Source: a virus (Duplodnaviria > Heunggongvirae > Uroviricota > Caudoviricetes). Taken from it: DNA of 64,000 bases. The notes under the pieces were generated by a model. That model saw only the letters and a program-made list of their open reading frames with translations. It searched no databases and was not told the origin of the DNA. Every line of letters starts with the position of its first letter. Within the stretch, counting starts at the first letter, position 1. Made by a program: the position numbers and the translations under genes. Positions 1 to 42,099 of this stretch are shown one piece after another. The DNA lies in IMG/VR virus record IMGVR_UViG_3300026966_000012; one strand, given 5' to 3'.

Positions 1-422
1 CGGGCTGCTGTAGCCCAGCGCCCTTTCCGCTTTCGCGCGCCGCCCCGCGCCCGCCCTGTCTGGTCCGTCAACTCCGCGAGGTGATAGTAGAGGATCTGAT
101 TAAATGCAGGAATCGTGATGTGAATACAACCCATCTACCCCCACCGCCGTGGGCCCTACTCGGCGACGCCTTCTGACGGCCGTAGCCCCTACCCTCCAGG
201 GTTGGCTCACGGCCCCCCACGCCCCGTGTACCGGGATTCATGCGCCTGTCTACGCCTGTCTCATTTCATACTCTCCGATGATACGACCCCCTCTGTTTCA
301 TCTCCGCGACCCGTCGCGTCAAACCGGCGGTGTATCAGATAGTAGAAACATTTAATATCGTATCACTCCAAGGATAAGATAGGACACCGGTCAAAACCGG
401 TGGCCAACTGGAGTGACCAGAG

Positions 423-881
423 ATGGCAAACGAGACCCAGGCGACTGAGGCACAGCAGACGACCATCGCGGGCGACGTCGACGTCGTCGACCCAACGCAG
501 CACGTCGTGGGCTTCAACGCGAAGACGATGAAGCGCGCGAAGTGGGAGGAGTACGACTTCGTGGTGACGGAGTCCGGCAACGTCGAGGTGCGCAACGCGT
601 CCTACGGGGACGACGCGGACGAGCACACGTACCACGTGGTGACTGACGCCGCGGGCATCCCGAAGTGGTGCCTGCACGCGCTGAGCGACGCGCACGAGGA
701 CGACTGGAAGCCGTGCCCGGCGATGGCCTACCACGCGGCGAAGAAGAACAAGGCGACGGGCCTCGAGACCGACGAGCTCGTGGCGCGGGGCGAGTACAGA
801 GTGTGCAAGCACGCTCTCGCCTACGCGCGCAACGAGGCGATCGTTCAGGCGGTCCGCCGCGTCAAGCAGGGTGACAACTGA
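423..881 (+). CDS. hypothetical protein, first ORF of an early cassette
   Basis: 152-aa ORF with high GC3; preceded by the module hairpin ACCGGTCAAAACCGGT and CTGGAGTGACCAGAG immediately before the ATG. Confidence 0.6.
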   Translation: MANETQATEAQQTTIAGDVDVVDPTQHVVGFNAKTMKRAKWEEYDFVVTESGNVEVRNASYGDDADEHTYHVVTDAAGIPKWCLHALSDAHEDDWKPCPAMAYHAAKKNKATGLETDELVARGEYRVCKHALAYARNEAIVQAVRRVKQGDN

Positions 882-1812: not shown

Positions 1813-1993
1813 TCGCCGACCCTGTCGTGTTTTCCTGTCGCCCCCTCGCGCGGCGTGGTGCGGCAACCCGGTGCCCTTGCGATGTCTCGGGTTTACCAGC
1901 AGTATCAAGTTATTAACATATCTTTATACTCGCTCCTCTCTTAGGTTAGGATAGGCACTGGGGAAACCCGGTGGCCATCTGGAGTGAAATCGA

Positions 1994-3658
1994 ATGGCAA
2001 GCAGTGACAACGACGTGGAGTACAGCACGGGACAGATCGGCGTCGACGAGGAGCGTATCATCGACGAGCTGATCTTCAGCCAGGCGGAGGGCATCGTCGA
2101 CGGCATCCGCGAGCTGGCGCAAAACGGCGTCGACGCACCCGGCTCGACGAAGGTCGAGATCAACGTGACCCCGGAGCGGACGGTCGTGGTCGACGACGGA
2201 GACGGGATGGACCTGAGCGACGAGTCGGTCCGGGAGTTCCTGACGAACCTGGGCCAGTCGACGAAGATCGACGATGAGGAGACGATTGGCCAGTTCGGCA
2301 TCGGCTTCGGTCAGGCGCTGGCGGTCGGGAAAGTGATAGTGCACAGCCAGGACTCGAAGGTCGAGTTCGACGCGAAGAACTGGTTCCGCGACTACCGGCT
2401 GTACGAGGCCGAGGAGCACTTCGACGGCACGAAAGTGACGATCGAGCACTACGAGGACGAGGTGCCCGAGGCGGGCGCGAGTGAGTGGTCCGACCACCTC
2501 GCCGACATCCGCACCCGGTTCCAGTACATGGAGCTGGTCAAGGGCGTTGAGGTGTGGCTGAACGACGAGCAAGTATCCGGATACGACCCGGCTGAGGACG
2601 ATGAGAACGCCACCGTCTACGACTCGGAACTGGCGTACATGGTCCTGAAGCACGAGAGTTACGACTGGATAACGGTGTACTCGGCGGGCCTGAAAGTCAC
2701 GGACGTCCGCGGCCACGGCATCGGGGGCACCGTGATCACGAAGCGCAACCTCGAGCTGAACACGGCGCGGAACAGCATCCGGTCTGGGTGCGAGGTCTGG
2801 CCCGAGGTCGAGGCCGAGATCGAGGAGGCACGTGTCGAGCTCCTGGACGCCGTCTCTGATTCGAAGCTGACGAACAGTGGTCGCGCGGCCGTGGGCCGCC
2901 TGGCCGCCCAGGGACACGAGGGGTTCGAGGACCGCGAAGTGTTCAAGCTGGCGAACGGTGAGATGACCACCCTCGAGACGATCCAGAGCCGAGACAGCAT
3001 CATGTTCGCTGACCAGACGGACAAGGCCGGGGGCAAGCTGGCTGACCACGGGAAGACCGTCCTGATGCGCAGCGATGGCGCGGTTCAGGCGATTCGGGAA
3101 GCGGTGAACCTCGGTCAGCTGAGCATCCCGGAGACGAAAGACGTCCAGGCGTCGGCGGCCGCGATGGGCATCGCGAACGGCTACGAGATCCTCGAGCCCG
3201 AGGAGTTCCACAGCAAGCCCCTGGCGATGGCCCGCATCCTGCGGGAGAAGATGGAGCAGTACAGCCCCTACGCGCTGGACCGGGAGATCGTGGCCGGAGC
3301 GGATAGCGGGGCCAACGCGTGGACGAAGCCGGACCCGTCGACCCTGAACCCGGTGGAGACGGCGGCGATCGCCGACTCTGAGTTCGAGTCGTTCGTCGCG
3401 ATCACGGACACCGCCTACAGCCAGTTGGCGAGCGAGGTCCTCGTGCTCGAGCTGTGGCGCATCCTGGCTCACGAGTTCGCCCACACGGAGGATTCGACGG
3501 GTGAGCCGTCCCACGGGTCGGGCTTCGCGATGCGCTTCCGCAAGATCCTCGACAAGACCCAGCCGGCGGCCGTCGAGCTCCTGAACGAGATTCGCCAGGA
3601 TGGTGTCACGGCAACGTTCGAGCGATACGACCACGGCGTCCCACACGCCCGCGCCTAA
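1994..3658 (+). CDS. GHKL-family ATPase (HATPase_c) with a C-terminal HExxH motif
   Basis: N-box ELAQNGVDA, G1 VDDGDGM, G2 GQFGIGFGQA; C-terminal ILAHEFAH; hairpin and CTGGAGTGAAATCGA leader before the ATG. Confidence 0.7.
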   Translation: MASSDNDVEYSTGQIGVDEERIIDELIFSQAEGIVDGIRELAQNGVDAPGSTKVEINVTPERTVVVDDGDGMDLSDESVREFLTNLGQSTKIDDEETIGQFGIGFGQALAVGKVIVHSQDSKVEFDAKNWFRDYRLYEAEEHFDGTKVTIEHYEDEVPEAGASEWSDHLADIRTRFQYMELVKGVEVWLNDEQVSGYDPAEDDENATVYDSELAYMVLKHESYDWITVYSAGLKVTDVRGHGIGGTVITKRNLELNTARNSIRSGCEVWPEVEAEIEEARVELLDAVSDSKLTNSGRAAVGRLAAQGHEGFEDREVFKLANGEMTTLETIQSRDSIMFADQTDKAGGKLADHGKTVLMRSDGAVQAIREAVNLGQLSIPETKDVQASAAAMGIANGYEILEPEEFHSKPLAMARILREKMEQYSPYALDREIVAGADSGANAWTKPDPSTLNPVETAAIADSEFESFVAITDTAYSQLASEVLVLELWRILAHEFAHTEDSTGEPSHGSGFAMRFRKILDKTQPAAVELLNEIRQDGVTATFERYDHGVPHARA

Positions 3659-3977: not shown

Positions 3978-4076
3978 GCCTTTCGGAATCCTGACTTGTC
4001 AGAACCCTTTATTACCGTATCCTGAGAAGGATTACATGGACCTCGAGAAAGCCGAGGCCAGCTGGAGTGACCAGAG

Positions 4077-4388
4077 ATGACAGATACAGCACGACTTGTC
4101 GTGAATGGCTATGTGGAACCGAGCGAGCGAGATACCCGAATTGTGTCGATCCTGGGGAGTCTGGCCGGCGTCCCGGACGGCCACCAGTTCGACTATCGCG
4201 GGATGACGATCGAAAAGCGCGTGACGACCGAGCGAGCGCGGCGCGAACCCGAGATCGCTGTCTACGACCCTGACGGCGAGTACGTCGACCAGTTCCAACC
4301 GCTCCTGTTCTCGTCGTACGAGATCGTGGAGATGCTCGACGAGATGCGAGCCTACTGGGTCGAGGAGAGTCGCGCCACGGCACTGTGA
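4077..4388 (+). CDS. hypothetical protein
   Basis: 103 aa; module leader CCTCGAGAAAGCCGAGG + CCAGCTGGAGTGACCAGAG before the ATG. Confidence 0.55.
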   Translation: MTDTARLVVNGYVEPSERDTRIVSILGSLAGVPDGHQFDYRGMTIEKRVTTERARREPEIAVYDPDGEYVDQFQPLLFSSYEIVEMLDEMRAYWVEESRATAL

Positions 4389-4841: not shown

Positions 4842-5016
4842 CGTTCCGCTTTTCCGCACCGCCTGCGCCAACCTGTCGACTTCCCGATTCAGTCTGACCT
4901 TGCTACGTTGTGTGATTACGGGCAAACACCTCAGATATACATATATTAATATTCACTCCACCCTTAGGTAGAAGTAGGCCAGGAAAACTGGCCCACCCGA
5001 ACGGAGATAGAGAAAG

Positions 5017-5166
5017 ATGCGATACAGAGTCTACGGTACGCACAGTGGCAACGAGTTTCAGGCACCTGTCGACGCAGTCGATGCGAGTGACGCGGTCGAC
5101 GAGTTCCTCGAGTCGGTCGAGGACCCGACCGAGTTCAGCGACGTCGAGGCCGAGGTCTGGGGGTAG
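5017..5166 (+). CDS. small acidic protein (49 aa)
   Basis: Untracked ORF after the module hairpin GGCCAGGAAAACTGGCC + CACCCGAACGGAG. Confidence 0.4.
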   Translation: MRYRVYGTHSGNEFQAPVDAVDASDAVDEFLESVEDPTEFSDVEAEVWG

Positions 5167-5340: not shown

Positions 5341-5342
5341 CG

Positions 5343-5651: not shown

Positions 5652-6059
5652 TCTCGACCCTGCTGCGGTTTGCATCGTTCCTGGTGGTAGTGAGCGGTTC
5701 GATTCCGTGACGATGCCTGGCCCCCGAGCCCTCAGACGATACGTTGATAGGTTCGCGGGGCCTATGCTCACGCGGCATCCGTTAGTGATGCCGTTCCGTT
5801 CGGGTGGGATAGCACGCGTCGGGCTGTCTCGGCAAGGGCAACCACGTCAGTCGAGATCAGAGGCTCGTGCAAACCCGTTGCCCGGGGCATTTGTCCCCGG
5901 GCGCCCTTTGGTACCGCCTCGAGCGAGAGCTCTTGTTCTCTGACATCGCGTATCCGCGCCCGAGCGCGCAAACCCGGTGTGATCATGCTACGATCCTGTT
6001 CTATCAGCAATATTATCTGACAAAGATATTATTATATCAGCTCCAGCCTAAGGTAAAGT

Positions 6060-6200
6060 ATGGCACGAAAAAGCCACTCGAGCGGAGATAGCGTGAACAA
6101 GCAGCGGTACCGCGGCAACGAGTCGACCGCCGACTTCGACCTGGGCGACGCACTGAGCCAGATCTCGGAGAGCCGCGAGGAGGACGAGGACGATGAGTGA
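6060..6200 (+). CDS. small acidic protein (46 aa), N-terminus MARKSHSSGD
   Basis: ATG inside the module hairpin TGGCACGAAAAAGCCA + CTCGAGCGGAG; untracked. Confidence 0.45.
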   Translation: MARKSHSSGDSVNKQRYRGNESTADFDLGDALSQISESREEDEDDE

Positions 6201-8282: not shown

Positions 8283-8391
8283 TTCGCATATCAATCGAGT
8301 TACGTAAGCAGCTATTGCCGATTCGGCGCCCCAGCGCGGCAACCCGGTGATTGCCAACCCCTAATCTATGACTCATGTTGATAAAGAAACA

Positions 8392-8399
8392 CTTAATAT
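8392..8399 (+). promoter_or_regulatory. TATA box of a cassette promoter
   Basis: acttaatatc lies about 26 nt upstream of the ATG at 8422. Confidence 0.45.
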
Positions 8400-8421
8400 C
8401 CCTCCACTCTTAGGTTAAGAT

Positions 8422-8583
8422 ATGGGACAAAAATCCCAACTCGGGCGGAACGAGGTACAGAGCGTCAAAATTGAAACGCAGGGCTCCCATGCTACGCTCT
8501 CACACATCGAGGGCGTGTGGATCGAGGATGGAGAGCTGGTCATCCGCACCCTCGAGGACTTGCCAATTCACGGAGAAATCTGA
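8422..8583 (+). CDS. small protein (53 aa), N-terminus MGQKSQLGRNE
   Basis: ATG embedded in hairpin TGGGACAAAAATCCCA; untracked frame (track ORF 8471..8809 is a different frame). Confidence 0.4.
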   Translation: MGQKSQLGRNEVQSVKIETQGSHATLSHIEGVWIEDGELVIRTLEDLPIHGEI

Positions 8584-8734
8584 GGCACGTCCTCCCACGG
8601 GACGCGCCCCCATGTCAAGCCTTCGTCCACGCGCAGCGGAGAGTGGCGGCGCCGACGGCTCGCCCTCGCGGGCCCGAGCGCGGCAAACCGGCACCATGCG
8701 ACGCCCGCGGAATCCCCGCAGTATCAGCCGTCTT

Positions 8735-8748
8735 ACATATATTAAATA
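8735..8748 (+). promoter_or_regulatory. TATA box of a cassette promoter
   Basis: acatatattaaata, about 27 nt before the ATG at 8772. Confidence 0.45.
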
Positions 8749-8771
8749 CCCTACCCTGAGTAGGAAGAAGT

Positions 8772-9107
8772 ATGGGACAAAAATCCCACCCCCGACCGGA
8801 GCAGTGTGAAGTGCCAGGGTACTACTGGACCGCCCCCGAAGTCGTCGAGTGCTGGCGCGACCCCGAGGACGTGCTGATCGCGTGGGACGACGGTGTGTAC
8901 GTGCTGTGTGTCGGCGAGCCGGCCGAGCATGCGAGTGAGTCAGGGCGACCGCTGTGGTACGCGCCCGAAGTGCGAGTGCACGACGTGTTCGTCGACGGCG
9001 AGCGATTCGAGCTGATCGAGCGCGACGACGAGCGCCTGCGCAACGTGCGGGAAGTGAGAGTGACGCACGGGACTGCAAGCGCCGTCGCCGAGCTCGAGTC
9101 AGCGTGA
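8772..9107 (+). CDS. hypothetical protein, N-terminus MGQKSHPRPE
   Basis: ATG inside hairpin TGGGACAAAAATCCCA followed by CCCCGACCGGAG. Confidence 0.55.
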   Translation: MGQKSHPRPEQCEVPGYYWTAPEVVECWRDPEDVLIAWDDGVYVLCVGEPAEHASESGRPLWYAPEVRVHDVFVDGERFELIERDDERLRNVREVRVTHGTASAVAELESA

Positions 9108-9187
9108 TCGTCGCCGTCGTCGCGCTGCTGGTGGTGCTGATAGGGCTCGCCGTGTTCTGGGCTGTCGTGCGGGCGATGGCGTCGTAG
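9104..9187 (+). CDS. tiny hydrophobic peptide (27 aa)
   Basis: GTGA overlap; VIVAVVALLVVLIGLAVFWAVVRAMAS. Confidence 0.3.
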   Translation: MIVAVVALLVVLIGLAVFWAVVRAMAS

Positions 9188-9336
9188 GGCCCTGTCGCGT
9201 GCCGCTTTCCCGCCGCGCCCCGTCGACCGCCGTCTGTCGTTTCCCCTCCGTCCACTCCGTCACCTCCGCGCGCCGCGTCACTGAAACCCGGTGTCCATGC
9301 CACGATCCGTACCCGACGACAATATCAGCCGATTAA

Positions 9337-9349
9337 CATATCTATATAC
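9337..9349 (+). promoter_or_regulatory. TATA box of a cassette promoter
   Basis: catatctatatac. Confidence 0.45.
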
Positions 9350-9371
9350 TTGCCCCAGACGAAGGTTAAGT

Positions 9372-9575
9372 ATGGCACGAAAATGCCTCCCGGACGGGTA
9401 CAGCTGGACAGTCGACGGTGAAGACGCGCAGACGACCGAGATCTACGTCGAGAACGCAGAGGGTGAGCTGATCGGCAAAGACCACGTGGCGTCGCAGTTC
9501 GTGCGAACCGACGCCGAGCGCGAGGAAGTTGCGGCGCAGATCGCCGCGGGTGAGCGGGGGCGTCAGTTCCAGTAG
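9372..9575 (+). CDS. hypothetical protein, N-terminus MARKCLPDG
   Basis: ATG inside hairpin TGGCACGAAAATGCC; internal ATG (index 27) of track ORF 9291..9575. Confidence 0.5.
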   Translation: MARKCLPDGYSWTVDGEDAQTTEIYVENAEGELIGKDHVASQFVRTDAEREEVAAQIAAGERGRQFQ

Positions 9576-9689
9576 AGCGGCGCCGACTGTCGGTTTTACG
9601 CCGTGCCCCGTCGACCATGCGACGTTCAGCGGAAGTCGACAATATCAGCTGTCATACATATATTCATATTCGCTCCCGACCAAGATAAG

Positions 9690-9806
9690 ATGGGGAGAAA
9701 AGCCCCACCCGACGGAACCATGAGCTACGCGACCCACGTCCAGATCCGGAAGTTGCAGAGAGCGAGAGACAAGAGCCGCTGGCCGAGCGACGAGGACGAC
9801 GAGTAG
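9690..9806 (+). CDS. small protein (38 aa), N-terminus MGRKAPPDG
   Basis: ATG inside hairpin TGGGGAGAAAAGCCCCA + CCCGACGGAAC. Confidence 0.4.
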   Translation: MGRKAPPDGTMSYATHVQIRKLQRARDKSRWPSDEDDE

Positions 9807-9833
9807 CGGGGCCGCCGCGGCCCCCTCGCCGAC

Positions 9834-9872
9834 GCGTGTGTACGTACATACGCGCCCATATGTACGTACGCC
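9834..9872. repeat. GTACGTACA alternating purine/pyrimidine palindrome
   Basis: gcgtgtgtacgtacatacgcgcccatatgtacgtacgc. Confidence 0.5.
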
Positions 9873-9990
9873 CATCTCGAACCCTCACGTGCCCGAGCGC
9901 GGCAAACCGGCACCCTGCGACGTCCGTCACAAGTCGACACATATCAGCCGCTTTACGTGTCTTTAATACCCTACCAGCCCAAGGTATAGT

Positions 9991-10353
9991 ATGGAAGCCA
10001 AAAACTTCCCACCGCGAACGGTGCAGAGCGCAGAGCCAACCGACGTCGTCGAAGAAGACGGCTACCGAGTCCTGACGTACGAGGACGTCGACGTCGACAT
10101 TCGGATCTCGCGGACGATCAGCCCCGAGACGCCGAAAATCTGGGTCGCCGGCGACCGACTCGACACGCAAGTGGAGACGGTGACCGACGTCGAGTTCCTC
10201 GGCTTCGAGCTCTGGCGATACACCTACCTCGAGGGTAAGCCGACCCATGCCGGTGAGGGTCGACACCGAGGCCGATTCGCCGAGGTCGAGATCGAGGAGA
10301 ATCACTACGGCGAAGACGAAGTCCACGAGTTCAGCCTCAGGGTCAAGCGGTAG
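9991..10353 (+). CDS. hypothetical protein, N-terminus MEAKNFPPRT
   Basis: ATG in hairpin TGGAAGCCAAAAACTTCCCA. Confidence 0.55.
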   Translation: MEAKNFPPRTVQSAEPTDVVEEDGYRVLTYEDVDVDIRISRTISPETPKIWVAGDRLDTQVETVTDVEFLGFELWRYTYLEGKPTHAGEGRHRGRFAEVEIEENHYGEDEVHEFSLRVKR

Positions 10354-10394
10354 ACGGGGCTGACGCCCGGTTTCGCGCGCCGCCCCGCCGCCCG

Positions 10395-10700
10395 ACGACC
10401 CCTGTTTCCACTCCGTCTGGTCCAACGCGGAATAGTAGAGGAAATTATTATTTGCAGAGATCGAGCCCTGAATACAACCCGCCTCAGCGAGGTTCATGGG
10501 CGCTACACGTCGGCGAGTTTTGTGAGGCATGGCTCCTACCCCTTCGAGTTGGCTCACGGCATTCCGAGCGTCGTGTGGACGGTGTCTCCGCGAGGTTCGT
10601 GGGCATCTCAGGAAATGCCCCCTGATGATACGAGAACCCCTGTTTCCCTTCCGCGTGCCGCGTCACGCGAATCCGGCACGCGCCATGCGACGTCGACGTC
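10395..10700. ncRNA. copy B of a conserved roughly 250-300 nt non-coding element (candidate ncRNA or regulatory repeat)
   Basis: Aligns with 1..335 and 14085..14335; core CTCCTACCC..GCTCACGGC, GCRTCTCAGG, CCCCTGTTTCC. Confidence 0.35.
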
Positions 10701-10724
10701 CATCCAGCAGTAACAGCCGTCTTA

Positions 10725-10737
10725 CATATCTATATAC
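10725..10737 (+). promoter_or_regulatory. TATA box of a cassette promoter
   Basis: catatctatatac. Confidence 0.45.
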
Positions 10738-10760
10738 CTGCACCACTCTTAGGATAAGAT

Positions 10761-11138
10761 ATGGGAACCAAAAACCCATCCGAAGCGGAACAGAGCGACG
10801 AGATCCTCCCGGCCCTCGACCACCGCGGACTGACGGGCCACGGCAAGGCCCGACTCGAGGAGAGCGAGCTCGTGACCCCGTACCTCGTGCGGACCCTCCA
10901 GGAGGCGGACCCGGCCATCCTCCGGGCCCTCTCGCAAGTGGCTGACGCCGCCGCCTCGGCCCGGTACGGCCCCATCCAGGCCCAGCTGGCCAAGGACGAA
11001 AGCGCGAGCCGCGAGATCCAGCAGCAGTACTGGAACCAGCTGGACGACGTGAAGGGCCTGTCCCTCCTCTGCACGGAAATCCTGCGCGACGAGCGTGACG
11101 GCGTGCCCAGCGAGGACGACCCGAGACTCGGCTTCTAA
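10761..11138 (+). CDS. hypothetical protein, N-terminus MGTKNPSEAE
   Basis: ATG in hairpin TGGGAACCAAAAACCCA. Confidence 0.55.
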   Translation: MGTKNPSEAEQSDEILPALDHRGLTGHGKARLEESELVTPYLVRTLQEADPAILRALSQVADAAASARYGPIQAQLAKDESASREIQQQYWNQLDDVKGLSLLCTEILRDERDGVPSEDDPRLGF

Positions 11139-11504
11139 CGCCGACCAGCGCACTACCACCAGCAGCGGCTGGCCTGCGCACCGGTTTTCCGCCGTGCCCC
11201 GTCGCCCACGTGACCCTCGTTTCCGCTCCGCCCGCGACTGTCTCGTGCGATCGTCGCGCCCTGCTTGCGTACGTGTCCCCCCACTGTTACGCTCGTCACG
11301 CCTGCGTTCGCGGCCTGTGCTATCCGCGTCCGACCCCTGTTTCATCTCCGCGTGCCAAGGCGCGGCAACCCGGTGGCGTCCCCGTCAGCAAACGGGCCCT
11401 TTCTGCAAGCAATCCGACACTGAAATCTATAAAACGCTGTCTCAAGCCCTCTACACGAGGATTTAGACCAGAACCTTTATATCAAATCAAGTTCAAGAAG
11501 AAGT

Positions 11505-11744
11505 ATGGAATCAAAAATTCCATCCCGGACGGAGAGTGGCGAGAGTGTCGAAATCGCAGTCGGTCACCGAGCGGAGAGCGACGTCATCGCGCGGGCGCTC
11601 AACGAGAAGGCGCGGGAAGCCGAGCTCGAAGCGGAGCGGGCCGGGCCGAAAACGCAGCCCGTGCACGAGCTCGACGCCGCCGTGCTGCGAAGCGCCGCCG
11701 CCGAGTTCGAGCGCGAGTACGCCGAGTGGCGCGAGGAGCGATAG
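11505..11744 (+). CDS. hypothetical protein, N-terminus MESKIPSRTE
   Basis: ATG in hairpin TGGAATCAAAAATTCCA + TCCCGGACGGAG. Confidence 0.5.
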   Translation: MESKIPSRTESGESVEIAVGHRAESDVIARALNEKAREAELEAERAGPKTQPVHELDAAVLRSAAAEFEREYAEWREER

Positions 11745-11746
11745 AG

Positions 11747-11908
11747 ATGCGCCCCGACGTGATCGAGTGGACGGGCGAGGCGCACCTGGTGACGACGGGC
11801 TGTGACGAGTGCGGGCGATCGTTCTCGATCGACGAGGACAGCGTGCGGTGGGCGGACGAGCGCGGACGACCCGTGTTCTGCGACTCGTGCGGGTCGGGAG
11901 GGCTGTGA
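11747..11908 (+). CDS. zinc-ribbon protein (53 aa)
   Basis: CDECG...CDSCG; in frame with track ORF 11210..11908. Confidence 0.45.
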   Translation: MRPDVIEWTGEAHLVTTGCDECGRSFSIDEDSVRWADERGRPVFCDSCGSGGL

Positions 11909-11909
11909 G

Positions 11910-12017
11910 ATGCGGCGGCTGCGGACGGCGCTGCTGGCGGCGAGCGTCGTGACGCGGATCGTCGCGTTCCCGGCGGTGTTGGCTGTCGCGCGGGCCCGAG
12001 CGAGGGTCGTGCGGTGA
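11910..12017 (+). CDS. small hydrophobic peptide (35 aa)
   Basis: MRRLRTALLAASVVTRIVAFPAVLAVA... Confidence 0.3.
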   Translation: MRRLRTALLAASVVTRIVAFPAVLAVARARARVVR

Positions 12018-12229
12018 GTTCCGTGCAGCGGCGGTTGTTCGAGGAGTCGGCGGTCGGGGCGGTCTGGGTCGAAGACAGTGACGGGGGTCGCGCGCTGGTG
12101 ACCGTCGAGCGGCACCCGACGGTGTCGATGGGACGTCTGCTCGAGGCGCTCCGGGGACGTGACGACGTCGAGACGGTGCGCCAGACGACAGCGACGCACG
12201 TCGAGGCGATCGTGCGAGGTGACGCCTGA
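12014..12229 (+). CDS. hypothetical protein
   Basis: GTG start overlapping the upstream stop. Confidence 0.4.
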   Translation: MSSVQRRLFEESAVGAVWVEDSDGGRALVTVERHPTVSMGRLLEALRGRDDVETVRQTTATHVEAIVRGDA

Positions 12230-12309
12230 TGCTGGTGGTACTGCTCGTTGCCCTGCTCGTGGTGCTGTTCGGCGTCTGGCTCGTGCTGGCCGCGGCTACC
12301 GCGTTCTAA
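12229..12309 (+). CDS. tiny hydrophobic peptide (26 aa)
   Basis: MLVVLLVALLVVLFGVWLVLAAATAF; ATGA overlap. Confidence 0.3.
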   Translation: MLVVLLVALLVVLFGVWLVLAAATAF

Positions 12310-12406
12310 CCTCGCGCGACGCGCCGCGGCAACCCGGTGAATCGGTCTAAGGGCTGTTACTACCGCATCACTGATATTTAATACCTCATGCGTCGAAGAT
12401 GAAGAT

Positions 12407-12868
12407 ATGGGACCAAAATCCCACCCAACGGGCGATGAAGCGAGCGATGAAGCGAGCGACGACGTCGTTGTCGTCGATGAGTGTGCGACGTGGGTCGGGC
12501 GACGCGAAGACGTGAGTGAAGACGAAGCCGTCGCCGCGATGAGCGATGTCGAGCGGGCCGTGAAGCGGGTCGCAGACGAGCGATGGGTCGACGTCGTGCG
12601 GGTCGCGATGTGCGACGACGAAGTGCGGGCCGTCGTGAAGATGAAGCAGTGTGAAGGGCCGGGTGCGGGCGCGACGACGTGGGCGAGCGCGTTGTGCGAC
12701 GTCGAGTTGGGCGACGGGCGCGAGCGCGAAGTCGATGTGAGCGTGACGTTGCCGGGCCGTGAAGGGATGTCGGGCGATGTGATGGGCGAAGTCGAAGTCG
12801 ACGGGCGCGAGTGGGAAGTGCGACGTGAAGTGTGGGTCGACGAAGACGGGCGCGAAGTCGGGCCGTAG
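12407..12868 (+). CDS. hypothetical acidic protein, N-terminus MGPKSHPTGD
   Basis: ATG in hairpin TGGGACCAAAATCCCA. Confidence 0.5.
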   Translation: MGPKSHPTGDEASDEASDDVVVVDECATWVGRREDVSEDEAVAAMSDVERAVKRVADERWVDVVRVAMCDDEVRAVVKMKQCEGPGAGATTWASALCDVELGDGREREVDVSVTLPGREGMSGDVMGEVEVDGREWEVRREVWVDEDGREVGP

Positions 12869-12995
12869 CGCGAGCGTGGGCGACGTCGCCGCCGGGCGAT
12901 GTCGTCGCGTGTCGGTTTCGCGCCGCGCCACCGCCCAACCAGCAGTTACAGCCGGAACACGTGCCTATATATCAGTATCATGAGAAGTAAGAAGT

Positions 12996-13334
12996 ATGGA
13001 ACCGAAAAGTTCCCACCGAGCGGAGTACAGTGAGCCGCCCATCGAGCTGGCGAATGCCGTGCGACGCGGCGAGCACTACCTGCTGGGCGACGTTGGAGAG
13101 TTCGTGGTCGACGAGATCGCTGTTGGGTACCCAGTCGAGGAGCGAGACGGCGTGGTCGCCCCGAACCGCGAGGCGTTCGTCACGCGTATCGAGTTTGTGG
13201 CGCCGGGCGAGTGTATCGTGATGGGTCTTGCCGAGCTCGAGGACCGCATCGATCGAACCGATGTGTTGCCCCTGACCGTGCGCGAACGCGATGAGGAGCT
13301 GCACGCGGAGTGGGAGAGCCACGGGCTGCTGTAG
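12996..13334 (+). CDS. hypothetical protein, N-terminus MEPKSSHRAE
   Basis: ATG in hairpin TGGAACCGAAAAGTTCCCA + CCGAGCGGAG. Confidence 0.55.
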   Translation: MEPKSSHRAEYSEPPIELANAVRRGEHYLLGDVGEFVVDEIAVGYPVEERDGVVAPNREAFVTRIEFVAPGECIVMGLAELEDRIDRTDVLPLTVRERDEELHAEWESHGLL

Positions 13335-13344
13335 TCGAGGCGCA

Positions 13345-13378
13345 CCGCTGCGGTCCGCTTTTGCGCCGTGCCCCGCCG
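13345..13378 (+). terminator. conserved cassette terminator motif
   Basis: GGTCCGCTTTTGCGCCGTGCCCCGCCGCTCG. Confidence 0.45.
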
Positions 13379-13438
13379 CTCGTCGCTGCTATTACCGGTA
13401 CGCTGACACTTATACTTGCACGAGTGGTAGGTAGAAGT

Positions 13439-13630
13439 ATGGTCAGAAACGACCACCCGAACGGAGAGCTGAGCGAGTACCAGAAGGCGAACGAGCTGAG
13501 CGACGACGAGTTGCGACAGCGCGTGATCGAGCTGCGGAGCGAGCCCGCGCCGCTGGTGGGAGTGGACAGCGAGTTGGAAGCCGCCGAGGAGGTCGCGCGA
13601 GACCGCGGGCTCGGGCTGGGGATGAGCTGA
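13439..13630 (+). CDS. hypothetical protein (63 aa), N-terminus MVRNDHPNGE
   Basis: ATG in hairpin TGGTCAGAAACGACCA + CCCGAACGGAG; internal ATG (index 43) of track ORF 13310..13630. Confidence 0.45.
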   Translation: MVRNDHPNGELSEYQKANELSDDELRQRVIELRSEPAPLVGVDSELEAAEEVARDRGLGLGMS

Positions 13631-13776
13631 TGCTGGGCCACAGCGGGCCGTTCTGTCCGGACTGCGGTGCAGAGGGACTGAGCGATGAGTGGGTCGAGGG
13701 CGGGCGACGGATGGTGGCGCGACAGTGCCCAGAGCCGAGATGTAGCTCGTACTGGGAGTACGAGGTGGGCTGCTGA
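13630..13776 (+). CDS. zinc-ribbon protein (48 aa)
   Basis: CPDCG...CPEPRC. Confidence 0.4.
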   Translation: MLGHSGPFCPDCGAEGLSDEWVEGGRRMVARQCPEPRCSSYWEYEVGC

Positions 13777-14006
13777 TGCAGCGACGGATCGACGCGACCG
13801 TGGTGATCGGGAGCGACCGAAAGACGGTGTCGGTGTGGGTCGACGAAGACGCGTCCGATGCGACCCGCGAGGCCGCGGTCGAGGAGATTGTCGGCGACGT
13901 CCGGTCGTGGGAGAGTGAGCCGGTCGAGCTCGAGGGATGGGGCGAGACGGGCTGGGTCCAGGGCGATGGCCGGGACGCGATGCCCCGCCGCGAGCCCGGC
14001 TGGTAG
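13776..14006 (+). CDS. hypothetical protein
   Basis: 76 aa; ATGA overlap. Confidence 0.45.
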   Translation: MQRRIDATVVIGSDRKTVSVWVDEDASDATREAAVEEIVGDVRSWESEPVELEGWGETGWVQGDGRDAMPRREPGW

Positions 14007-14084
14007 CCCCGCCTCGCGATTGTGGCCAGTGTCGGTTTTGCGCCGTGCCCCGCCGACCCCTGCTTCCGGTCCAACGACGCTGTC

Positions 14085-14335
14085 CAGCGGATTGAGCCGA
14101 CTGTGCGCCCGCATCTGACTGTCTCCGGAGGGTCCAAGGGCGTCTCACGTCGGCGTGTTTCTGACGCTGTGACTCCTACCCTGTAGGGCCTGCTCACGGC
14201 GTTTTGACGCCTGTGCGGACACTGTCTCCCGGCGTTCTGTGAGCGTCTCAGGCTGTCGCTTGCCGTGATGTCGTACGCATGTCATGACCCCTGTTTCCAC
14301 TCCGCGCCACGTCGCGTCAAACCAGCAGTATCAGC
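14085..14335. ncRNA. copy C of the conserved non-coding element
   Basis: cacgtcggcgtgtttctgacg..ctcctaccctgtagggcctgctcacggc..gcgtctcagg..cccctgtttccactccgcg. Confidence 0.35.
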
Positions 14336-14342
14336 CGCCAAA

Positions 14343-14355
14343 CATATCTATATAC
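14343..14355 (+). promoter_or_regulatory. TATA box of a cassette promoter
   Basis: catatctatatac. Confidence 0.45.
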
Positions 14356-14378
14356 TTGTACCCTGAGAAGCATAAGAT

Positions 14379-14621
14379 ATGGGAAAGAAAAGTCCCACCC
14401 GAGCAGAACTGGCACAGAAACGCCGCGGCATCGTCAGCGCGCTCCCGTTCACGTGCCCGACCGAGCGAGGCGACCAGATCGTGGTGCACGTGCAAGACCG
14501 CAAGCTGGAGAAGTTCGAGCGCGTCGCGAAGCAGCTCGAGCTCGAAATCGTCGACCGCGAAGACGGCGGGAGTTCGCAGCAGGGCCGGCGCCTGCGCATG
14601 ACGCTGGAGACGGCCTCGTGA
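14379..14621 (+). CDS. hypothetical protein, N-terminus MGKKSPTRAE
   Basis: ATG in hairpin TGGGAAAGAAAAGTCCCA. Confidence 0.5.
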   Translation: MGKKSPTRAELAQKRRGIVSALPFTCPTERGDQIVVHVQDRKLEKFERVAKQLELEIVDREDGGSSQQGRRLRMTLETAS

Positions 14622-14761
14622 GCCGCGTCGTCCGGGTCCCGCGTCTCGGCGACCGCCGTAACCCGTGCACCGTCATGCACGAGACGCACACGGGTCGCCT
14701 GAAAGTGCGCGACCGCTACGGCTACGCCCTGCGGGTCGACCCCGAGGAGGTCGTCGAGTAG
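14618..14761 (+). CDS. small hypothetical protein (GTG start)
   Basis: GTGA overlap; same frame as track ORF 14453..14761. Confidence 0.3.
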   Translation: MSRVVRVPRLGDRRNPCTVMHETHTGRLKVRDRYGYALRVDPEEVVE

Positions 14762-14771
14762 CGCAACCGCC

Positions 14772-15293
14772 ATGTATCGCGACTACGAGATTCGATTCGA
14801 GCCGATGGACTGGCCGACGCCCGTGTACGTCAGCGAGGACGAACCCAGCCCCGACGCGGTCGACCCGATCGAGAACTGGAACGTGAAGCCGGTCGGTGGG
14901 CTGTGGACAGCACCGCTGCTCGATGACAGCGACGGCCTCGCGACCGCCTGGACAGAGTGGATGAACGCCGAGCAGTACGTCCCGTATGGCGAGAACGCTC
15001 GCCTGTACGCCCTCGAACCGCGTGACGACGTCGACCTGTTCGTGGTCGACAGCCTCGATGCCGCGAAGGAGCTGTACGCGTTCGGCGACAGCGGACCGGC
15101 CGAGGTGCTCTCGAGCGCGGTCGACTACGAGGCGATCGTCGACGAGTACGACGGCGTCCGCCTGACGCATGAGGGCCAGATCGACACGCGCCTGTCGTGG
15201 GAGGCGAATCTGAACGGCTGGGATTGTGCGTCGACGGTGTGGTTCGACTGGTGCTTCGAGTCGGTCGAAGACCTGGGCCCGCTGGAGTTGTAG
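14772..15293 (+). CDS. hypothetical protein
   Basis: 173 aa, high GC3. Confidence 0.55.
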   Translation: MYRDYEIRFEPMDWPTPVYVSEDEPSPDAVDPIENWNVKPVGGLWTAPLLDDSDGLATAWTEWMNAEQYVPYGENARLYALEPRDDVDLFVVDSLDAAKELYAFGDSGPAEVLSSAVDYEAIVDEYDGVRLTHEGQIDTRLSWEANLNGWDCASTVWFDWCFESVEDLGPLEL

Positions 15294-15295
15294 CC

Positions 15296-15330
15296 GGGCC
15301 CGCTTTTGCGCCGTGCCCCGCCGTCAGCCG
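15296..15330 (+). terminator. conserved cassette terminator motif
   Basis: CCCGCTTTTGCGCCGTGCCCCGCCG. Confidence 0.45.
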
Positions 15331-15421
15331 ACAGCAAACGGGCCTGTTCTGTGGACCGTTCCGTCCTGTTTTCGCGGATTCGGGCGTCTCAGGCCGTCTA
15401 CGCGCGGAATGGTGTGGGAAA

Positions 15422-15430
15422 ACTATATAC
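15422..15430 (+). promoter_or_regulatory. TATA box of a cassette promoter
   Basis: actatatac. Confidence 0.4.
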
Positions 15431-15453
15431 CTGTAAGTGTCCAAGTATAAGAT

Positions 15454-15651
15454 ATGGGACAAAAAATCCCAACCCGACGGAGAGCGACGCCGGCGAACCT
15501 CGAGCAGAGACTCGCCGAGATCGAGCGAGAGCTGCGGGCGATGAGCCGGGGCGACGTCGACGCAGGGACGTGCCGCTGGCTGCTGGAGGAGAAAGCCGAG
15601 CTGCGAGCCGAGCGCAACCGCCTGTTCGCGGCGACGGGGCGGTGGTCGTGA
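15454..15651 (+). CDS. hypothetical coiled-coil protein, N-terminus MGQKIPTRRR
   Basis: ATG in hairpin TGGGACAAAAAATCCCA. Confidence 0.5.
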   Translation: MGQKIPTRRRATPANLEQRLAEIERELRAMSRGDVDAGTCRWLLEEKAELRAERNRLFAATGRWS

Positions 15652-15800
15652 TGAGCGACGACGAGTTCCCGGGACCCGCGCCGATGGGCGCACGACCGCC
15701 GGACGTCGTCGAGCGGGCGAAGGAGATCGCGTACGGCGAGGTGTCGGCGACGTCCGAAGAAGTCGCCTGGGCGCTGGAGGTGATCGCGGATGAGCGATGA
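15651..15800 (+). CDS. small hypothetical protein
   Basis: Internal ATG of track ORF 15306..15800; TGATG overlap. Confidence 0.4.
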   Translation: MSDDEFPGPAPMGARPPDVVERAKEIAYGEVSATSEEVAWALEVIADER

Positions 15801-16029
15801 GTTGCTGGGCGTGATCGAGGTCGAGAGCAGCAAGCCGTACGTGAAAGACGTGTACGACGTGGTCCGCGTCGATGGGCCCGATCTCGAGACGGTCTGCGTC
15901 GAAGCTGGCGAGCGCCACGAGCTGGGCGACCGCGTCCGCTGGCCGAACGAGCTCGTGACGGTGATGTCCCGGGCGACGCTGTACGACCCCGACGGCAACG
16001 AGATCGAGATGGCTGAGCTCGGCCGATAG
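15790..16029 (+). CDS. hypothetical protein
   Basis: 79 aa. Confidence 0.45.
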   Translation: MSDELLGVIEVESSKPYVKDVYDVVRVDGPDLETVCVEAGERHELGDRVRWPNELVTVMSRATLYDPDGNEIEMAELGR

Positions 16030-16082
16030 GGCCCCGGCTCCCGCCTCGGCCTACGCGCGCCAAGGCGCCGCAACCCGGCAAC

Positions 16083-16120
16083 GCGTGTGGGTACGTACCG
16101 ACGTGTGTGTATGTACAGAC
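16083..16120. repeat. GTACGTACA alternating purine/pyrimidine element (degenerate copy)
   Basis: gcgtgtgggtacgtaccgacgtgtgtgtatgtacagacg. Confidence 0.4.
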
Positions 16121-16305
16121 GCCGACCCCGAACCCCGATTCGCCCGACCGGCTGCACTACCACCAGCAGCGACCGGCTCAGCCGACAAAAAACGGGCCCA
16201 CATCACGACGGTTTTCACGCGCGGAATCCAAAACGAACGCCTCAGGGCTCCTACGCGCGGAATGTGACCAGAAACTATATACCTGTCAAAGTACAAGTAT
16301 GTAAT

Positions 16306-16542
16306 ATGGAATCAAAAATTCCATCCCGACGGAGCAGCGAAGCGTGCGAGAACGGTGTCGAGAACGCGATCAGTGAGCGAGAACGTCGCCTCGTGCGGGA
16401 CGTGACGGCCATCGTCAACGAGCTCGAGACGATCTCGCAGCACGACGAGATGCTGAGCGGGCGAATGACGAAGCAGTGGGCCGAGGGGCTGTGCGACGCA
16501 GTCGACGAGTTCGCCGAGTCGGACCCGCACGCGCAGGAGTAG
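16306..16542 (+). CDS. hypothetical protein, N-terminus MESKIPSRRS
   Basis: ATG in hairpin TGGAATCAAAAATTCCA. Confidence 0.5.
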   Translation: MESKIPSRRSSEACENGVENAISERERRLVRDVTAIVNELETISQHDEMLSGRMTKQWAEGLCDAVDEFAESDPHAQE

Positions 16543-16544
16543 GG

Positions 16545-16610
16545 CGGGCGAGCGGGCTTTTTTGTGGGCGCTGATGTCGCGTGCCGATTTTCCGCCGTGC
16601 CCCGCGCCGC
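16545..16610 (+). terminator. T6 tract plus conserved terminator motif closing the cassette array
   Basis: gggcttttttgtggg, then GTGCCGATTTTCCGCCGTGCCCCGCGCCGCG. Confidence 0.5.
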
Positions 16611-40915: not shown

Positions 40916-41046
40916 AAGAAAGAGTTCTATTGGCACACAGTCTTGCGATTAGAACAGGTAAGAAAACAGAAACATATTTTACCTCCTACTGCATACATAG
41001 ATTACCCACCGGGCACAGGGCCTGGTGGCGTGGAACGGAGTTACTG

Positions 41047-42099
41047 ATGGAAGACGGACCAGATACGCATGACGTCCCCGGGCACGACCGGGCGACAGGC
41101 ATCGACGACCCCGTACCGGACCGCGAGTATGGGGACCAGGACCACCGGCCTGAGGACGAGGTCGATCCCGCCGAAGACGACCGCTACACGATGGAGGACG
41201 AGTACGCGGTGGATGAGGTCGGCGGATATGGTTCCAGCAAACACTACGGCACGTACTGTGCGTTCGACTTCGCACAGGCGGCGGAACAGGCTCAGGATGA
41301 GCACCCCGCTCTCGACCTGGGCCTCGTCCATGTGACTCACCTGGAAACGGGAGAGACGCAGCATGTAGAGCTCGAGCCCACGGGACAGGACCCAGACGGA
41401 ACGGTCGACGTGGCCACGGACACGGTTGAGCTCGAAGGCGAGATCGGAACGCTCGAGCCCGACGTTGACGAGGAGGAGATGGAGAGAGTCAACGACTCAC
41501 TCGAGGACTGGATAACGACACTGGAGCTGAACGCGTTCCTCGAGACCTACGACTACCTGTGGGCCGAGTATCCGGTCGACGATGGGGAGGACGTTGTCTA
41601 CGTCGTTCCGGATGCAGAACGGTCGTTCACGAACAAGGAGGAGCTCGCATACTTCATCCACCAGCTCGAACAGTACCCGAAGCAGGTGAGCGTCAGGGCA
41701 CAGGTGCAGTGTCGCTTTGACCTGATGCTGGCGTCGCCGGATAGCGACCCGGAAACAGCCGCGAATGATCAGGTCGCATCGGCAATCGAATCAGTGGGCG
41801 TCACAGTTGACGGCGTGAACGTGATCGACGTCGAAGATGTCCCCAAGTATCCTGAGAGTGAGCAGGCCGACGTGGAAGACCCGATCCCAGACATCGGCGA
41901 CACTATTCGATTCATCCTCCCCGGAGATGGTGTCGAACGCGATGGTGTTGTCAAAACGGTTCGCGGGTTCGACGGCGATATCGAGATCGAGGTGGAAACC
42001 GCGGACAAGAACAATCAGACGTACGTCTCTCCAGAGCACATCACGAGTGTCCAGCCAGCTGATGATGCTGACACGCCCGATCACGAGGTGTTCAACTGA
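41047..42099 (+). CDS. hypothetical highly acidic protein
   Basis: ATG after a hairpin + CGTGGAACGGAG box; upstream part of the track ORF looks non-coding. Confidence 0.45.
   Translation: MEDGPDTHDVPGHDRATGIDDPVPDREYGDQDHRPEDEVDPAEDDRYTMEDEYAVDEVGGYGSSKHYGTYCAFDFAQAAEQAQDEHPALDLGLVHVTHLETGETQHVELEPTGQDPDGTVDVATDTVELEGEIGTLEPDVDEEEMERVNDSLEDWITTLELNAFLETYDYLWAEYPVDDGEDVVYVVPDAERSFTNKEELAYFIHQLEQYPKQVSVRAQVQCRFDLMLASPDSDPETAANDQVASAIESVGVTVDGVNVIDVEDVPKYPESEQADVEDPIPDIGDTIRFILPGDGVERDGVVKTVRGFDGDIEIEVETADKNNQTYVSPEHITSVQPADDADTPDHEVFN

Follow-up and report, generated by a model that had tools for sequence, protein, structure and literature searches.

Why do so many early genes of a haloarchaeal virus appear to begin inside a hairpin? 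The question is raised by IMG/VR record IMGVR_UViG_3300026966_000012, of which we analysed a stretch of 64 kb (hereafter the window; ~60% G+C, with genes on the + strand in the stretches examined). The window comes from a tailed virus of haloarchaea that measures ~150 kb or more, and the first 16.4 kb of the window hold a dense array of very small open reading frames (ORFs) without family assignment. A preliminary description of positions 8422-16330 had proposed that the ATG of many of these gene cassettes lies within a covarying stem-loop at the 5' end of a leaderless mRNA, where it would be sequestered as a translational operator. We found a covarying hairpin at a defined position relative to a promoter, conserved in four genomes. 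Its structural signal is robust, and it looks like a real, undescribed RNA control element. Our favoured explanation, to which we give a probability of roughly 45%, is a 5'-terminal RNA element of early mRNAs that serves their stability or identity and is tolerated by leaderless translation.

Nineteen promoter-plus-hairpin modules were identified in the window, all on the + strand: 13 at 8.4-16.4 kb, a further five at 0.3-6.1 kb, and a single one at 41.0 kb. A module spans ~75 bp and consists, from 5' to 3', of a TATA-like box ending ~23 nt before a conserved A, a purine-rich spacer of ~23 nt, a stem-loop of 4-10 bp lying 1-4 nt past the A (5' arm beginning at +2 to +5), and a Shine-Dalgarno (SD)-like box, CC(C)GA(A)CGGAG, at ~+20 to +32. 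In 14 modules, the A is that of an ATG reading in frame into the cassette ORF. Thirteen of these ATGG-type modules lie within 8422-16330 (A at 8422, 8772, 9372, 9690, 9991, 10761, 11505, 12407, 12996, 13439, 14379, 15454, and 16306) and a further one is at 6060. A profile built from the 13 copies at 8.4-16.4 kb recovered those copies at E = 1e-12 to 1e-17; the same profile also picked up 6020-6087 and 4934-5007 and, with weaker matches, sites near 345, 1914, and 4006. The nine hairpins quoted in the preliminary description were all present in the sequence, some of its coordinates being off by 1-2 nt. Its statement that the hairpin is always followed by CCCGAMCGGAG was too strict: the exact string was found in two copies only (8772, 13439), the near-identical CCCGACGGAG in 15454 and 16306, and degenerate boxes in the remaining copies, e.g., CTCGGGCGGAAC, CCCGGACGGGT, CCCAACGGGCG, and CCCGAGCAGAAC. 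A second CCG..CGG stem, suggested for the same segment, was rejected on geometry, with just 2-3 pairs and loops down to 1-2 nt.

The hairpins exceeded what could be expected by chance. The pattern TATGG-N8-14-CCAHC occurred 14 times, compared with 0.88 expected occurrences (0/100 shuffles); 11 of these occurrences were modules, and these all lie on the + strand. For the stem containing the G of the AUG, the mean length was 5.14 bp in the window and 3.36 bp in shuffles keeping the first six bases (0/1000). Compared with 35 other ORF starts from the window, the 5' segments of modules were the more strongly folded (Mann-Whitney p = 5e-7), and a covariance model of the hairpin gave matches on the + strand only and in the early region only. 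A generic whole-window scan for an AT-rich block followed by a hairpin yielded the same stem distribution on both strands; it was not discriminating and was set aside.

Relatives were sought by a protein-guided search with the HATPase-domain gene of the window (1994-3658), by which three loci were recovered. In the metagenomic relative IMGVR_UViG_3300027007_000012 (L001), which is identical across the fetched stretch to ENA contig ORDC01000044 (154.8 kb), the HATPase gene has 79% amino-acid identity to that of the window. The 'plasmid unnamed3' of Halobaculum (Halorarum) halophilum Gai3-2 (NZ_CP058532.1; L004, L007), a circle of 148,857 bp, has a HATPase gene of 66% identity. It encodes a terminase, an SPFH protein, an NDP-sugar synthase, and thyX, in the order of the window; terminase, NDP-sugar synthase, and thyX in this order indicate a virus-like replicon. 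Its annotation is that of a plasmid only, but it appears to be a viral genome maintained in plasmid form. Both relatives share synteny with the window, and both have the same modules. A chromosomal homologue of the HATPase gene in Halalkaliarchaeum (L005) was without modules. The large terminases (TerL) of the window and of halovirus HGTV-1 are ~25% identical, which marks a distant relation.

Megablast and blastn against 50,697 deposited phage genomes found no close relative of the window or the region, and a protein-guided scan of GTDB genomes gave no match. A plasmid search with the region had the Halobaculum plasmid as its sole match. Exact-pattern scans of public collections found the known relative again and otherwise chance matches only, namely the low-GC phage L002 and the Micrarchaeota metagenome-assembled genome contig L010. 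The whole window had no match to Rfam at the gathering score, nor did positions 1-17000 at E <= 1 (Rfam 15), and a tRNA search found none. Pfam gave no informative match for ten cassette proteins; all cassette proteins tested were ORFans.

At least 12 different stems occur in the window, and pairing is maintained in each. They include UGGGA/UCCCA, AUGGAAU/AUUCCAU, GGAAC/GUUCC, GGAAG/CUUCC, UGGUC/GACCA, UGGGG/CCCCA, and GGCA/UGCC, as well as UGGC/GCCA, GGCCAG/CUGGCC, CACCGGU/ACCGGUG, CACUGGG/CCCGGUG, CCUCG/CGAGG, and CCACCGGGC/GCCUGGUGG. MAFFT lost the stem register; covariation was therefore scored on a covariance-model alignment, which leans towards structure, and by our own anchor-based and shuffle tests. 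For 32 distinct copies, drawn from three genomes and aligned by the model, pairing held in 94.9% of the alignment cells, compared with 83.3% after partner shuffling, and the covariation score was 0.281 versus 0.064 (0/500); since the copies are related by descent, such shuffle numbers are not probabilities. The outer three pairs were fixed by AUGG...CCA and the inner pairs were variable, pair 4 being G-C in 20 copies, C-G in five, A-U in four, and U-A in one. When 60 distinct AUG-type 5' ends of four genomes were aligned by anchors, position +5 was paired in 92% versus 42%, with five pair types, and position +6 in 72% versus 45%. Internal non-Watson-Crick positions in the helices were U.G or G.U four times and A.C zero times. 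The loop was conserved as [C/G]AAAA in the three close genomes, non-coding modules included. The presence of G.U without A.C and the strictly one-stranded A-rich loop point to sense-strand RNA.

Comparisons between orthologous cassettes are free of the caveat of common descent, and here, too, the compensatory changes claimed for the stems were seen. Orthologues of the 9690 module have UGGGG/CCCCA versus UGGGA/UCCCA, those of 6060 UGGC/GCCA versus UGGGA/UCCCA and AUGGG/CCCAU, and those of 12996 GGAAC/GUUCC versus UGGGA/UCCCA, the latter in the Halobaculum element. CCUCG/CGAGG at 4036 corresponds to CUUCG/CGAAG, and CACCGG/CCGGUG at 381 to CAUCG/CGAUG. At 1953, CACUGGG-GAAA-CCCGGUG faces CACUGAGG-GAAA-CCUCGGUG, with one pair inserted and the U.G wobble retained. 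The window, the metagenomic relative, and the Halobaculum element differ in gene content by whole cassettes, and homology starts at or near the modules, in a comparison of two or three genomes only.

The expectation that the transcript starts at the hairpin agrees with promoter geometry. Of 47 modules drawn from three genomes, 34 have their AT-richest heptamer ending at -22 to -24 relative to the conserved A. For mapped promoters of halovirus HF2, a figure legend in PMC8707807 gives an accepted TATA spacing of -24 to -28, and we regard the spacing of the modules as the canonical archaeal distance between TATA and transcription start site (TSS), falling within that range. Given this spacing, the conserved A is the likely TSS. 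The AUG is in the coding frame, as judged by the coding G+C signature, in 14 of 14 ATG-starting window modules (chance about (1/3)^14), and its U2 and G3 are paired in nearly all AUG modules. Most of the 14 offer no alternative in-frame start within their first 60 nt, so that leaderless translation from +1 is the most economical interpretation, and the 5' AUG would be the start codon of these ORFs. The box after the hairpin is read in all three frames (8:6:5). This agrees with the earlier view that the recurrent N-terminus MG[QTPK]K..P is a by-product, as does the orthologue of the 15454 ORF in the relative, which lies inside an operon without the module and without the first 8 residues and starts MRRSTPADLEQRL, compared with MGQKIPTRRRATPANLEQRL in the window. 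Thus, the module supplies the N-terminus.

In five window modules, the hairpin is located 18-24 nt upstream of the start codon, with an SD-like GGAG 6-10 nt before the ATG. These are the cassettes with ORF starts at 423, 1994, 4077, 5017, and 41047, for which an upstream hairpin had already been noted; the hairpins (382-405, 1956-1973, 4041-4057, 4977-4993, and 41006-41028) end 18-24 nt before the start codon. Modules 381, 1953, and 4976 begin with AGG rather than AUG and 41004 begins with ACC; 4036 retains a 5' AUG, which opens a short upstream ORF (uORF) only. The 5' AUG opens a uORF of 10-14 codons in other copies as well, with its stop on the main start (ATGA at 4077; L001 16254) or 2 nt before it (L001 12041; L004 19802), which suggests leaderless initiation followed by termination-reinitiation. 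At L004 17391, the frame opened by the 5' AUG is not that of the conserved protein, whose start is an internal ATG shortly after the box. Hence a definition of the hairpin by start-codon sequestration fails for 5 of the 19 window modules, and for orthologues, that have no 5' AUG or have the main start ~20 nt downstream.

The hairpins also differ in strength. The mean minimum free energy (MFE) was -5.3 kcal/mol for in-frame AUG hairpins (n=31) versus -12.3 kcal/mol for modules without a 5' AUG (n=8; p = 8e-6). As the hairpin is also present in modules without a 5' AUG, and as hairpins with an AUG are the weaker ones, the common feature is the transcript 5' end and not the AUG. In our reading, an element meant to hide the AUG would not need the strength cap seen in AUG hairpins. 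The leadered and uORF copies make the ancestral layout look like a 5' hairpin, an SD-like box, and a start codon.

A comparable hairpin was found in the early arm of HGTV-1. Early starts there read GUAUGG followed by a variable stem, e.g., GUAUGGAGCAAAACUCCACCCUCGAACG, GUAUGGAGCAACACUCCAACAACGAGCGGAAG, GUAUGCCUCACUACAAGGCA, GUAUGGUUGAAGCAACCA, and GUAUGGGUCAGAUAACCCAAGCCGACGCGGAG. Like the window modules, they are promoter-proximal starts with a covarying, AUG-containing hairpin, often with a ..CGAGCGGA.. box. MFE z-scores of 34-nt segments were uninformative for HGTV-1 and a stem-specific test was used. Among 22 promoter-proximal early starts, 86% had a stem of at least 4 bp including the G of the AUG, compared with 43% in shuffles, and the mean stem was 4.55 versus 3.46 (0/1000). 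Five operon-internal (CAAUG) starts and 39 late-gene starts of HGTV-1 showed no stem enrichment. The hairpin is therefore common to two distant lineages of large haloarchaeal tailed viruses. One difference is that the loops are not conserved in HGTV-1.

What might the hairpin do? We propose that the early region is organised as roughly 20 short transcription units, each opened by a module. Host RNA polymerase would start at the A, in which case every early transcript would carry the stem-loop at its extreme 5' end. The stem-loop is selected at the RNA level, as a structure and not as a peptide. Ancestrally, the hairpin may have been followed by the SD-like box, 5-10 nt, and the start codon. 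In most cassettes, the first three bases would then have become AUG and been fused in frame to the ORF, giving a leaderless mRNA in which codons 1-10 would be dictated by the RNA element. The primary job of the hairpin at the 5' end would be to protect or mark early viral mRNAs against 5'-end-dependent decay. Where it holds the start codon, it would be kept weak enough for the ribosome to open and may thereby also set or throttle initiation. The very-5' position, the free sequence, the presence with or without a start codon, and the restriction to promoter-proximal early genes argue for a 5'-terminal stem-loop acting in cis; a stabilising role is what we infer for it. Haloarchaea lack an exosome but have aRNase J, as in Haloferax (PMC10470531). 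This enzyme degrades RNA as a 5'-3' exonuclease and is conserved among Euryarchaeota (PMC7144898), and in Sulfolobus aIF2-gamma protects 5'-triphosphate ends (PMC3936769).

Several points weigh against a stabilising element. Neither the A-rich [C/G]AAAA loop conserved in the three close genomes nor the likewise conserved SD-like box within ORFs is explained by a pure stabiliser. Leaderless initiation should suffer if the 5' AUG is structured, and a repressive role fits this equally well. By standard parameters, stems of the AUG class come to -4 to -7 kcal/mol, which is weak, and two copies (L001 20682; L007 3907) show hardly any structure. The likely TSS at the A is placed by promoter geometry alone, and the copies are paralogues and close orthologues, so that shuffle statistics overstate their independence.

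The main rival is the translational operator of the preliminary description, in which hairpin, A-rich loop, and box would bind a viral or host RNA-binding protein or nuclease that switches early leaderless mRNAs, as do T4 RegA, RegB, or boxB. The paired U2 and G3 of the AUG fit such a role, as do the narrow, weak energy range of stems with a functional AUG, expected of a tunable element, the loop conserved also in non-coding modules, and the GGAG-containing box that follows in three frames. Moreover, early genes of large viruses commonly need post-transcriptional shut-off, of which T4 RegA and RegB are examples. However, a hairpin lying ~20 nt upstream of the start in 5 of 19 modules cannot sequester the start or the SD there, the loops of HGTV-1 vary, no candidate binding protein was identified, and all cassette proteins tested were ORFans. 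We consider an operator doubtful, and the proposal that it serves a virus-encoded regulator is speculation. It is also rather unlikely, in our estimate, that hairpin and GGAG box together form the recognition signal of a dedicated post-transcriptional control of leaderless early mRNAs. A viral or host factor (an RNA-binding protein, helicase, or nuclease) would then recognise the structured 5' AUG and activate, protect, or shut off the mRNA, as an archaeal counterpart of boxB/N or RegA/RegB.

If the module instead acted as DNA, as a recombination or shuffling site or a promoter-proximal operator comparable to the promoter-early stem-loops (PeSLs) of T4-type phages, the RNA hairpin would be incidental. 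Recombination or sequence-specific DNA binding needs a conserved sequence, and at least 12 stems keep pairing instead; G.U pairs without A.C and the strictly asymmetric loop indicate one strand, and 5-bp stems are too short for cruciform extrusion. These observations make a DNA-level element unlikely, even though the genomes differ by whole cassettes with homology starting at modules, one ORF has gained or lost its module, the early motif of HGTV-1 has been likened to PeSLs (PMC3950731), and the promoter modules repeated in HF2 have been suggested as binding sites for regulators (PMC8707807). Module recombination probably shapes gene content as a side effect. Much less probable is a processing signal, at which a structure-specific ribonuclease would cut read-through transcripts at the 5' base of the hairpin to create a 5'-terminal AUG. 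The hairpin does begin exactly at the AUG, and long primary transcripts are cut to smaller RNAs in HF2 and phiH1 (PMC8707807), but each module has its own TATA at the canonical distance and a T-run ends most cassettes, so that independent initiation suffices; no nuclease candidate is known. A protein-level signal, by which the N-terminus MG[QTPK]K..P would be a functional peptide for processing or targeting and the complementarity accidental, could account for the recurrence of M-G/E-x-K-x-P in many copies. It leaves no reason for residues 2 and 5-6 to change together without protein logic (G..S, E..I, V..D, A..C) with the base pairs kept, or for the same hairpin to stand in untranslated leaders. 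Given the covariation, the box in three frames, and the orthologue without the peptide, it is effectively refuted.

Leaderless mRNAs are the main mRNA type of haloarchaea and are thought to need a free 5'-terminal AUG. Selection that keeps the AUG of early genes in a stem, in at least four genomes of two distant virus lineages, contradicts this simple free-AUG picture. Should the hairpin turn out to protect or regulate these mRNAs, archaeal virus gene expression would have its first described cis-acting 5' RNA element, and the hairpin would offer a handle on leaderless initiation versus structure and on 5'-end-dependent decay in archaea. Of the carriers, two can be grown in culture, namely HGTV-1, on Halogranum, and Halobaculum halophilum Gai3-2, which harbours the 149-kb element; Haloferax reporter systems for halovirus promoters already exist. 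The first ~10 codons of module ORFs, if dictated by the RNA, are not to be read as protein motifs.

The individual modules (all + strand) are as follows, beginning with those that have a leader or a uORF. The leadered module at 351..425 has TATA-like TTAATAT at 352-358, a predicted TSS at A381, and its ATG at 423; its hairpin (382-405) is a 10-pair helix, GGACACCGGU-caaa-ACCGGUGGCC, with one A.G mismatch, followed by box CUGGAGUGA at 408-416. An A.G mismatch is kept at the same place in long leadered helices, (U)GG-A-[stem-loop]-G-CC(A), at window 381-405 and L001 8455-8481 and 12041-12066, and constitutes a conserved non-canonical feature. The leadered module at 1923..1996 (predicted TSS A1953, ATG 1994) has hairpin CACUGGG-GAAA-CCCGGUG at 1956-1973, with a U.G wobble kept in the orthologue, and box CUGGAGUGA at 1979-1987. 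In the uORF module at 4006..4079, ATG 4036 is at the predicted TSS, the hairpin CCUCG-agaaagc-CGAGG occupies 4041-4057, and box CUGGAGUGA lies at 4062-4070; the uORF has 14 codons and ends in an ATGA overlapping main start 4077. The leadered module at 4946..5019 (predicted TSS A4976) has hairpin GGCCAG-gaaaa-CUGGCC at 4977-4993, then CACCCGAACGGAG, and ATG 5017 located 10 nt past the GGAG. An isolated leadered module lies outside the early region at 40974..41049, with TATA-like CATATTTTA at 40973-40981, predicted TSS A41004, a 9-bp hairpin CCACCGGGC-acagg-GCCUGGUGG with one G.U at 41006-41028, AACGGAG, and ATG 41047, which is 6 nt past the GGAG.

The AUG modules begin at 6030..6091, where ATG 6060 is followed by hairpin 6061-6076 (UGGC-acgaaaaa-GCCA) and box CUCGAGCGGAG. 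At 8392..8453 are ATG 8422, hairpin 8423-8438 (UGGGA-caaaaa-UCCCA), and the degenerate box ACUCGGGCGGAAC; at 8742..8803 are ATG 8772, hairpin 8773-8788 (UGGGA/UCCCA), and box CCCCCGACCGGAG. The module at 9342..9403 has ATG 9372, hairpin 9374-9387 (GGCA-cgaaaa-UGCC), and box UCCCGGACGGG. That at 9660..9721 has ATG 9690, hairpin 9691-9707 (UGGGG-agaaaag-CCCCA), box CCCGACGGAACC, and an internal ATG in frame at 9720, from which point on the protein is conserved in the relatives. Next come 9961..10022, with ATG 9991, hairpin 9993-10009 (GGAAG-ccaaaaa-CUUCC), and box CCGCGAACGGUG, and 10731..10792, with ATG 10761, hairpin 10761-10779 (AUGGG-aaccaaaaa-CCCAU), and box CCGAAGCGGAAC. The same stem and loop, AUGGAAU-caaaa-AUUCCAU, are found at 11505-11523 in module 11475..11536 (ATG 11505, box CCCGGACGGAG) and at 16306-16324 in module 16276..16337 (ATG 16306, box CCCGACGGAG). 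Module 12377..12438 comprises ATG 12407, hairpin 12408-12423 (UGGGA-ccaaaa-UCCCA), and box CCCAACGGGCG; module 12966..13027 comprises ATG 12996, hairpin 12998-13013 (GGAAC-cgaaaa-GUUCC), and box CCGAGCGGAG. Hairpin 13440-13455 (UGGUC-agaaac-GACCA) belongs to module 13409..13470 (ATG 13439, box CCCGAACGGAG), hairpin 14380-14397 (UGGGA-aagaaaag-UCCCA) to module 14349..14410 (ATG 14379, box CCCGAGCAGAAC), and hairpin 15455-15471 (UGGGA-caaaaaa-UCCCA) to module 15424..15485 (ATG 15454, box ACCCGACGGAG).

Other genes and repeats of the window were recorded as well. The window encodes a T4-type large terminase (TerL; 24193-25836), a ribonucleotide reductase (47246-50236), a DUF3383 domain protein, and a DpdA-like (deoxypurine-in-DNA) protein (39647-40915), the last of which suggests that the virus DNA is modified with a 7-deazaguanine derivative. 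The repeat CCGCTTTTGCGCCGTGCCCCGCCG (families D3/D4/D7) follows just past the stop codon of the last ORF in most cassettes (1788-1822, 7547-7573, 9202-9236, 9590-9616, 10367-10401, 11181-11215, 13355-13389, 14032-14066, 15300-15334, 16584-16618) and is probably an oligo-T terminator region closing each transcription unit. A non-coding element of ~240 nt has three copies in the window (60-300, 10400-10650, 14060-14300) and at least one in the relative (L001 ~17100-17360). It contains the blocks GAATACAACCC, GGGCGCTACACGTCGGCG, CCCCTACCC, GCTCACGGC, and TCTCAG, with a direct repeat of ~20 nt, ACCCCTGTTTCC(A/C)CTCCGCG, at both ends. A small mobile element and an RNA gene are both conceivable; RNAalifold gave no convincing consensus structure and Rfam no match. 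Alternating purine-pyrimidine repeats (GTACGTACATACGCG..., family D9) are intergenic at 3938-3980, 9831-9873, 16082-16124, 24133-24175, 31027-31069, and 51787-51829. Motif CTACCACCAGCAGCG (families D11/D14/D16) occurs near gene ends and in intergenic positions across the whole window (4797-4823, 11141-11167, 21351-21377, 40375-40401, 52413-52439, 56357-56383, 62259-62285). Segments 3690-3940 and 5650-5940 have no ORF with a coding signature, are GC-rich and self-complementary-looking, and contain no tRNA and no Rfam match. In the metagenomic relative, a sequence like the 3' half of a tRNA, GGGGGTTCGAGTCCCCCACCGGGCA, lies directly before a variant module (L001 6030-6066) and may be an attachment-site remnant.

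How, then, do the modules compare with known systems? The early region of HGTV-1 has been reported to hold a conserved motif consisting of a TATA-like stretch together with an inverted repeat, and this motif has been likened to PeSLs (PMC3950731, summarising Sencilo et al. 2013). HGTV-1 resembles the present virus as a large haloarchaeal myovirus whose small ORFan genes form an array, each preceded by a repeated module with a TATA-like box. From its early arm, we recovered a repeat family with a sequence-conserved inverted repeat, CTCCTCGTGGCACGAGGAG, between two TATA-like boxes ~60-110 nt upstream of genes, and we assume that it is the inverted repeat of the published description. A search of the window for CTCCTCGTGGCACGAGGAG that tolerated up to 3 mismatches gave 0 matches. 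Nearer each HGTV-1 gene stands a further TATA-like element that ends ~23 nt before the start codon. As far as we found, a 5' stem-loop embedding the AUG of leaderless mRNAs has not been described; the review mentions the upstream inverted repeat only, and the original 2013 description of HGTV-1 may mention the hairpin.

The intergenic repeats of classes I and II in HF2 bear promoters, are conserved in position among related haloviruses, and have been proposed as regulatory sites (Russ, Pfeiffer & Dyall-Smith 2021, PMC8707807). The window modules are likewise a repeated intergenic sequence directly upstream of genes, with a TATA box at promoter distance. The HF2 class I gamma core CGTCTNNTAGAG had 8 matches in the window (<=1 mismatch) versus 5.3 expected, none of them in a module; class II motifs were not searched. 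In contrast to the modules, the HF2 repeats as described in PMC8707807 have no stem-loop at the TSS and no start codon within the repeat, and the words 'hairpin', 'stem-loop', and 'leaderless' are absent from the text.

The PeSLs of T4-type phages are mobile regulatory cassettes, short composite motifs that flank ORFans in hyperplastic early regions (PMC2839356, PMC4122927). They share with the modules the principle of gene cassettes with their own expression signals, and in PeSL phages the indels between relatives fall at the motifs. However, in a PeSL a terminator-like stem-loop precedes an early promoter of the bacterial sigma-70 type, whereas the stem-loop of the window lies downstream of an archaeal TATA promoter (~23-nt spacing), at +2 to +24, and includes the start codon. 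Its stem sequence, moreover, covaries rather than being conserved.

Stem-loops at the 5' terminus that stabilise mRNAs include those of the E. coli ompA 5' untranslated region and those of the B. subtilis and SP82 type. The resemblance lies in a stem-loop a few nucleotides from the 5' end (here predicted), free in sequence if paired, and acting in cis on many unrelated ORFs. The 5' stabilisers known to us are bacterial and stand in leaders upstream of the SD, never containing a leaderless start codon, and we know of no archaeal or archaeal-virus example. Two further likenesses serve as leads only: the hairpin at 4977-4993, GGCCAG-GAAAA-CUGGCC, with a conserved linear box nearby, resembles lambda nut boxB (GCCCU-GAAAA-AGGGC), and GGAG is conserved in early mRNAs as in the T4 RegB system. 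Most window loops, unlike the GNRA-like pentaloops of boxB, have 6-8 nt of [C/G]AAAA(A), and we identified no N-like or RegB-like protein or antitermination context. Integron attC sites, imperfect inverted repeats that an integron integrase recombines, differ in standing at the 3' end of promoterless cassettes, whereas the module is at the 5' end of a cassette and has its own promoter; no search for an integron integrase was made. In conclusion, although they fail membership of each family at the level of sequence or architecture, the modules are the archaeal-virus analogue of repeated promoter cassettes such as the HF2 repeats, the HGTV-1 motif, and the T4 PeSLs.

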